In this document: positions 5,355 through 6,694 of the stretch, one piece after another
Numbering within the stretch: the stretch's first letter is position 1
Layout of the letters: each line of letters starts with the position of its first letter
Assembly: GCF_016026235.1 (NCBI RefSeq)
Contig: NZ_CP065613.1
Direction: 5' to 3' (one strand)
Length of the DNA: 64,000 nt
Origin: Escherichia coli
GTDB taxonomy: Bacteria; Pseudomonadota; Gammaproteobacteria; Enterobacterales; Enterobacteriaceae
Program-made: the position numbers and the translations under genes
Notes under the pieces: generated by a model
What the model was told of the DNA's origin: nothing
Seen by the model: only the letters and a program-made list of their open reading frames with translations
Database searches by the model: none

Positions 5355-6694
5355 ATGGCGACACAATCCAGTCCTGTTATTACTGATATGAAAGTCATTC
5401 CGGTCGCCGGACATGACAGCATGTTGCTCAATATTGGTGGTGCGCATAACGCATACTTCACCCGCAATATCGTGGTACTCACCGATAACGCCGGGCATAC
5501 CGGCATTGGTGAAGCGCCGGGCGGAGAGGTGATTTATCAAACACTGGTCGATGCTATTCCGATGGTTCTGGGCCAGGAAGTTGCGCGACTGAATAAAGTG
5601 GTCCAGCAGGTGCATAAAGGTAATCAGGCAGCCGATTTTGATACCTTCGGCAAAGGTGCCTGGACTTTTGAATTGCGCGTTAATGCCGTGGCGGCGCTGG
5701 AAGCCGCCTTGCTTGACCTGCTAGGTAAGGCGTTGAATGTTCCGGTCTGCGAACTGTTAGGGTCAGGCAAGCAACGCGATGCTATTACCGTCCTCGGTTA
5801 TCTGTTTTATATCGGTGATCGGACCAAAACCGATCTTCCTTATCTGGAAAATACGCTGGGCAACCATGAGTGGTATCAGTTGCGGCATCAGAAAGCGATG
5901 AACAGCGAAGCCGTTGTGCGTCTGGCGGAAGCCTCACAGGATCGCTATGGCTTTAAAGATTTCAAACTTAAGGGCGGGGTGTTACCTGGCGAGCAAGAAA
6001 TCGACACTGTTCGTGCATTGAAGAAAAGCTTCCCGGATGCGCGGATTACCGTTGATCCCAACGGTGCCTGGCTGCTTGATGAAGCCATTTCTTTGTGCAA
6101 AGGGCTGAATGATGTTCTTACTTATGCCGAAGATCCATGCGGCGCAGAACAGGGCTTCTCCGGACGTGAAGTGATGGCGGAGTTTCGGCGGGCGACCGGC
6201 TTGCCCGTCGCGACTAACATGATCGCCACCAACTGGCGCGAAATGGGCCATGCGGTGATGCTCAATGCGGTAGATATTCCACTTGCCGATCCGCACTTCT
6301 GGACGCTTTCCGGTGCAGTCCGCGTGGCGCAGCTTTGCGACGACTGGGGGCTGACCTGGGGCTGCCATTCTAATAACCATTTCGATATCTCTCTGGCGAT
6401 GTTTACCCATGTGGGCGCGGCGGCACCGGGTAATCCTACCGCTATCGATACCCACTGGATTTGGCAGGAGGGCGATTGTCGCCTGACCCAAAATCCGCTG
6501 GAGATTAAAAACGGAAAAATTGCCGTTCCTGATGCGCCGGTCTGGGCGTGGAACTGGACTGGGAACAGGTACAAAAGGCACATGAGGCCTATAAACGTCT
6601 GCCTGGCGGTGCGCGTAACGACGCAGGTCCGATGCAGTACCTGATCCCCGGCTGGACCTTTGACCGTAAACGTCCCGTTTTCGGCCGTCATTGA
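5355..6694 (+). pseudogene. gudX: glucarate dehydratase-related protein GudX with apparent 1-bp frameshift near the 3' end
   Basis: ATG at 5355 gives [23 protein letters not shown]... (enolase superfamily). Around 6535-6545 the frame shifts: the opening frame ends ...[36 protein letters not shown] (stop 6644) while the -1 frame encodes the conserved C-terminus [51 protein letters not shown], paralogous to the GudD C-terminus. Consistent with loss of one G in a G-run (GCGCCGGTCTGGG versus expected GCGCCGGGTCTGGG). Confidence 0.7.

Follow-up and report, generated by a model that had tools for sequence, protein, structure and literature searches.

A one-base deletion in gudX of Escherichia coli, very probably an inherited pseudogene allele of an EIEC lineage

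The gudX gene of this Escherichia coli genome has lost a single C at codon 395, and we consider it a real, inherited loss-of-function allele with a probability of about 93%, produced by ordinary gene decay in an IS-rich enteroinvasive E. coli (EIEC) lineage. This conclusion rests on agreement with other isolates. The same loss occurs in many independently sequenced EIEC isolates, and it is therefore read as an inherited pseudogene mutation and not as a sequencing error. All positions refer to the window, the whole stretch of 64,000 nucleotides that was analysed, and the genes of the operon described below lie on its plus strand.

The gudP-gudX-gudD operon begins with gudP (4001-5353), an intact open reading frame of 450 aa for the galactarate/glucarate/glycerate transporter. 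It is annotated as gudP in both K-12 and FDAARGOS_943 and differs from the K-12 protein by the single substitution K212Q. The whole ancestral 446-codon gudX gene follows at 5355-6694, where it measures 1340 nt compared with 1341 nt in intact genomes. The third gene, gudD (6715-8055), encodes an intact glucarate dehydratase of 446 aa with two changes specific to the lineage, M298I (7608 G>A) and P359L (7790 C>T). Downstream of gudD, barA is located on the opposite strand. The window thus shares the gudP-gudX-gudD synteny adjoining barA with the known E. coli gudX locus (also named ygcY; GlucDRP of the enolase superfamily, structures 4IL0 and 4GYP).

Translation from the ATG at 5355 follows GudX through Pro395, whose codon is changed silently from CCC to CCG, and leaves the conserved sequence at that codon. 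The translated frame (5355-6644) comprises 429 aa, namely 395 native residues and a 34-residue out-of-frame tail, and it ends at a premature TGA (6642-6644) that lies 50 nt ahead of the normal stop at 6692-6694. The tail showed no match anywhere in GudD by alignment. The normal C-terminus of GudX, residues 396-446 with the stop codon, is stranded out of frame at 6539-6694; its 51 residues (6539-6691) are terminated by the normal gudX stop, and the frame is closed on its upstream side by a TGA at 6530. This remnant peptide aligned with GudD 397-446 at 66% identity, gapless, with E = 6e-21, which is far beyond chance. The first-pass annotation had described an unrelated tail on the frame from 5355, a -1 frame running parallel to the GudD C-terminus, and a 1-bp deletion that frameshifts the conserved end of gudX. 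The reading frames, the K-12 alignment, and the comparison with GudD agree with it on all three points.

The identity of the missing base was a different matter. The same annotation had placed the loss in a G-run and expected GCGCCGGGTCTGGG, whereas the K-12 MG1655 alignment reads GAT GCG CCC GGT CTG GGC against GAT GCG CC- GGT in the window. The K-12 reference at the break is GCGCCCGGTCTGGG, and the lost base is a C of the CCC proline codon, leaving CC at 6537-6538 where alignments and probes show CCC in 5,397 complete E. coli genomes. Comparison with a reference E. coli gudX, one of the checks proposed in that annotation, therefore upheld the 1-bp deletion and corrected the base from G to C. 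Repair by an extra G, giving GCGCCGGGT, was rejected since K-12 and FDAARGOS_943 both have GCGCCCGGT. From the letters of the window by themselves the two repairs look alike, because both encode Pro-Gly. Inserting one C restored a 446-aa GudX that is 100% identical to GudX of FDAARGOS_943 (WP_096854285.1); six residues separate it from the K-12 protein.

The repaired protein has the MR_MLE_N and MR_MLE_C domains of E. coli GudX, and PDB entries 4IL0 and 4GYP_C were matched with E = 0. In the window, the C missing at codon 395 exchanges the final 51 residues of intact GudX for 34 unrelated ones. Pfam MR_MLE_C is matched up to residue 395 in the mutant and up to residue 404 in intact GudX, and the TIGR03247 match to the mutant stops at profile position 391 of 441. 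By these profile matches, the mutant protein has lost the terminal part of its barrel domain and the entire C-terminal segment. E. coli GudD (TIGR03247; PDB 1EC7 and others) is a paralogue of GudX with 62.5% identity over the full length, and the two proteins occur together as chains of PDB entry 4GYP. Against the TIGR03247 equivalog cut-off of 828.7 bits, the GudD of the window scored 894.4, whereas the frameshifted GudX (667.5) and even intact GudX (747.4) fell below it. Because the intact protein is below the cut-off, GudX is regarded as a paralogue of glucarate dehydratase and not as an isofunctional copy.

The catalytic consequences were assessed by homology with GudD. The GudD positions H32, T103, Y150, K205, K207, D235, N237, E260, N289, D313, H339, N341, H368, and R422 are all conserved in repaired GudX, and the residue numbering agrees with the N341D and N341L mutant entries 1JDF and 1JCT. 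Among these, we take K207, D235, E260, N289, D313, H339, N341, H368, and R422 to be the acid/base, metal-ligand, and substrate-binding residues of the active site, and Arg422 is presumably the substrate-contacting arginine of GlucD crystallography. The frameshifted protein keeps all catalytic residues upstream of position 395. However, R421, the GudX counterpart of GudD R422, lies in the lost tail and is held by the stranded remnant. Since the lost segment includes this residue, the frameshifted GudX is very probably inactive or unstable. The uninterrupted 446-codon frame of an intact gudX breaks at codon 395 in the window; for this reason the gene was filed as a pseudogene, a non-functional member of its family.

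To describe the distribution of the deletion, 5,426 complete E. coli genomes were searched by megablast. A 50-nt probe centred on the deletion junction matched none of them, while the control probe for the wild-type junction matched 5,397. The junction probe has 26 nt of exact match per side and so cannot seed a megablast hit unless the deletion is present. With 0/5,426 against 5,397/5,426 matches, the deletion is a derived state limited to a small lineage. At least four NCBI accessions, named E. coli O124 or E. coli and including EFK2887425.1, hold the exact 429-aa product, and a contig look-up placed it on 21 public contigs (14 at the first count), the longest of them in the class above 1 Mb. 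Four further loci were compared as DNA (L004-L007), taken from NCBI assemblies GCA_000805835.1 and GCA_012752895.1 and from two Logan assemblies of separate SRA runs. All four carry the identical deletion, with 0, 1, 2, and 5 SNPs relative to the window. One carrier, JTCO01, is EIEC strain 4608-58 (O143:H26), sequenced by Illumina MiSeq and assembled with CLC (PMC4319576), a platform and pipeline unlike those behind a multi-megabase contig. The deletion is thus derived and recurs in independent isolates and on independent platforms, two of the properties that mark an inherited frameshift pseudogene. The allele is already in public data, though without discussion there, and the event is of an ordinary kind.

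Other E. coli strains have lost gudX independently. In three lineages, nonsense codons were observed at position 370 (RNVV01), 371 (DABOPX01), and 372 (CP028737.1), each with gudD intact, and an independent 1-bp C deletion at gudX nt 1062 was found in a fourth, among P0301867-type and JORI01 strains, again with an intact gudD. These knock-outs come from loci L009, L010, and L012-L018, and their detection is biased toward lesions that leave a 48-aa C-terminal ORF callable. They resemble the window in that the same gene is lost and gudP and gudD remain open; their lesions and strain backgrounds differ. Such recurrent loss fits a weak constraint on gudX. The window also resembles the lineage-specific pseudogenes of Shigella and EIEC, which arise by point mutation and IS insertion, as it holds a derived frameshift fixed in an EIEC set within an IS-rich region. 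In contrast to the pathoadaptive and antivirulence loci cadA/cadC, ompT, speG, and nadA/nadB, gudX is unlisted among such loci in one review.

Selection for the loss was weighed against neutral decay. All five carriers have the GudD substitutions M298I (7608) and P359L (7790), which FDAARGOS_943 and K-12 lack and which had no match in a search of 5,426 complete E. coli genomes. At either site the residue is conserved in GudX, the paralogue. Over the 7.3 kb aligned with MAFFT, the gudX frameshift and these two substitutions are the only carrier-defining changes, and all three alter protein. If GudX loss and an altered GudD were favoured in an invasive lineage, the glucarate dehydratase module would have been inactivated pathoadaptively, and the typically mucate-negative phenotype of Shigella would accord with this. 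However, the clustering within gudX-gudD is marginal (P about 0.05) and was spotted post hoc, so that it hints at relaxation or selection across the operon and is no firm result. The GudD of the window also scores above the TIGR03247 cut-off, gudX has been lost in non-invasive E. coli lineages as well, which fits plain weak constraint, and a literature search returned no link of gud genes to EIEC virulence. We therefore regard selected inactivation as unlikely. For the deep conservation of GudD M298 and P359 the PDB alignments were uninformative, as the five shown were all E. coli GudD variants.

A more specific form of this idea can be stated. The gudX frameshift, M298I, and P359L might jointly shut down or retune D-glucarate dehydration, with the loss of aldaric-acid catabolism being a selected step toward a Shigella-like, mucate-negative intracellular lifestyle. 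We hold this to be slightly less probable again than selection in general. The catabolic routes of galactarate and glucarate meet after the dehydratase steps. Gene decay is a feature of Shigella and is less intense in EIEC (review, PMC5723341). Fermentation of mucate (galactarate) has been lost in Shigella (PMC8072062), and EIEC keep more of this ability (PMC9629502). The literature search yielded nothing relevant on gudX/GlucDRP function, on Arg422, or on an EIEC gud phenotype.

The first-pass annotation had left the choice between a real inactivating mutation and a homopolymer sequencing error. The evidence favours the former, through the sharing of the allele and a clean indel census. Under the latter, the true genome would read CCC and its gudX would be intact. 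The lesion does sit in a short C run in a GC-rich context, no complete RefSeq E. coli genome carries it, and spurious gudX frameshifts exist in some public assemblies, such as NCTC UGED01. However, the run is just 3 bases long, and the same deletion appears on 21 contigs across samples, platforms, and assemblers, including MiSeq with CLC. In addition, 5,091 genomes share an identical wild-type 51-mer at this site without such an error, which argues against a context-specific systematic artefact.

The indel census was made against FDAARGOS_943, the closest complete relative (99.93% identical), in which gudX is intact. Over 55.5 kb of collinear sequence the two differ by 27 substitutions and one genuine indel, which is the gudX C; a second apparent indel, at 28482, arises from the edge of the alignment where an IS1 begins or ends. 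In window positions 1-23138 the gudX C is the single indel, and no compensating indel was found downstream of the lesion. A homopolymer artefact, which would be private to one assembly and accompanied by raised local indel density, was rejected because the allele is shared and only one true indel occurs in 55.5 kb. An error thus appears very improbable, and an inherited mutation is retained as the reading of the deletion. As a separate observation, the NCTC assembly GCA_900450065.1 (UGED01000011.1) has five single-base indels in gudX, and its gudP, gudD, and barA are fragmented too. It is a genuinely indel-noisy assembly, in contrast to the window.

That a full-length or split GudX is still made, by programmed -1 ribosomal frameshifting or as a working two-piece protein, is scarcely credible. 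In its favour, a -1 shift directly behind the CCG codon (6537-6539) would yield a protein identical to wild type, and a 48-aa ORF is open from GTG 6548. Against it, the gudX zero frame contains not one slippery heptamer of the form X XXY YYZ, the TGA at 6530 leaves a slip window of only a few bases, and a run this short does not allow transcriptional slippage. GTG 6548 also has no obvious ribosome-binding site ahead of it, and the two-frame state is derived and unconserved, with a single frame in 5,397 genomes.

For the inherited deletion, replication slippage would be the simplest route, with one C lost from the CCC at codon 395. The lost C shifts the frame into 34 unrelated residues and a stop 50 nt early. 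Such a loss fits a host-restricted lineage in gene decay, in which selection on a dispensable paralogue is relaxed. Within the operon, gudP and gudD both remain open. The premature stop lies 70 nt upstream of the gudD ATG, compared with 20 nt in the intact operon, so that the untranslated gap ahead of gudD is lengthened accordingly. Little polar effect on gudD would be expected, because an AAGGA ribosome-binding site of its own serves gudD and no terminator intervenes. A polar effect by way of a terminator was considered and rejected, as neither promoter-like nor terminator-like motifs were found in 6300-6900.

Several other features of the window were recorded. The window and FDAARGOS_943 are both rich in IS1, ISEc60/IS4-like, and other elements, which cut neighbouring genes and rearrange gene order. 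A 769-bp IS1 copy (28480-29248) lies in yqcE, an MFS transporter gene that is intact in FDAARGOS_943. The reverse holds for ygcW (30291-31088), which is whole in the window and cut by IS1 in FDAARGOS_943. A copy of ISEc60 truncates ygcU near 31588. IS4-family copies (ISEc60-like) are among 24520-25837, 31576-32883, 39543-40303, and 40370-41716, the last of which holds a transposase-sized ORF of 448 aa. An IS1A between a LemA-family gene and queE is present in FDAARGOS_943 and absent from the window. Past the last IS4-family copy, the cysH-hok side directly abuts lysS-prfB-recJ...gcvP...pepP (41730-64000). The lysS...pepP block has its counterpart in FDAARGOS_943 on the other strand, 90-125 kb away from the gud operon; because of this distance and orientation, an IS-mediated rearrangement is likely.

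A small CRISPR array (24271-24523) with a 61-bp period and the repeat GAGTTCCCCGCGCCAGCGGGGATAAACCG adjoins queE. This stretch was just 96.8% identical to FDAARGOS_943 with 12 gap openings, which suggests that the two arrays may differ in spacer content. A 1-bp difference at 3571, in the yqcA-gudP intergenic region right after the yqcA stop, reads ATG-TCAGC in the window and ATGTTCAGC in K-12. It is an ordinary intergenic polymorphism, as FDAARGOS_943 shares it. In a region of FDAARGOS_943 outside the window (L003 7471-8464 and 22413-24501), the annotation lists rpoS and flhA/fhlA as pseudogenes by frameshift, and IS elements truncate several genes. These pseudogenes fit gene decay across the wider lineage.

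In the annotation of this genome, gudX should be marked as a pseudogene and should not be "corrected" as a sequencing error; beyond that the deletion has little significance. Together with gudD 7608A and 7790T, the CCC->CC allele could serve as a cheap marker of an EIEC sub-lineage. The recurrent knock-outs in which gudD stays open suggest that GudX is dispensable in several E. coli lineages, a modest clue for the study of this paralogue.
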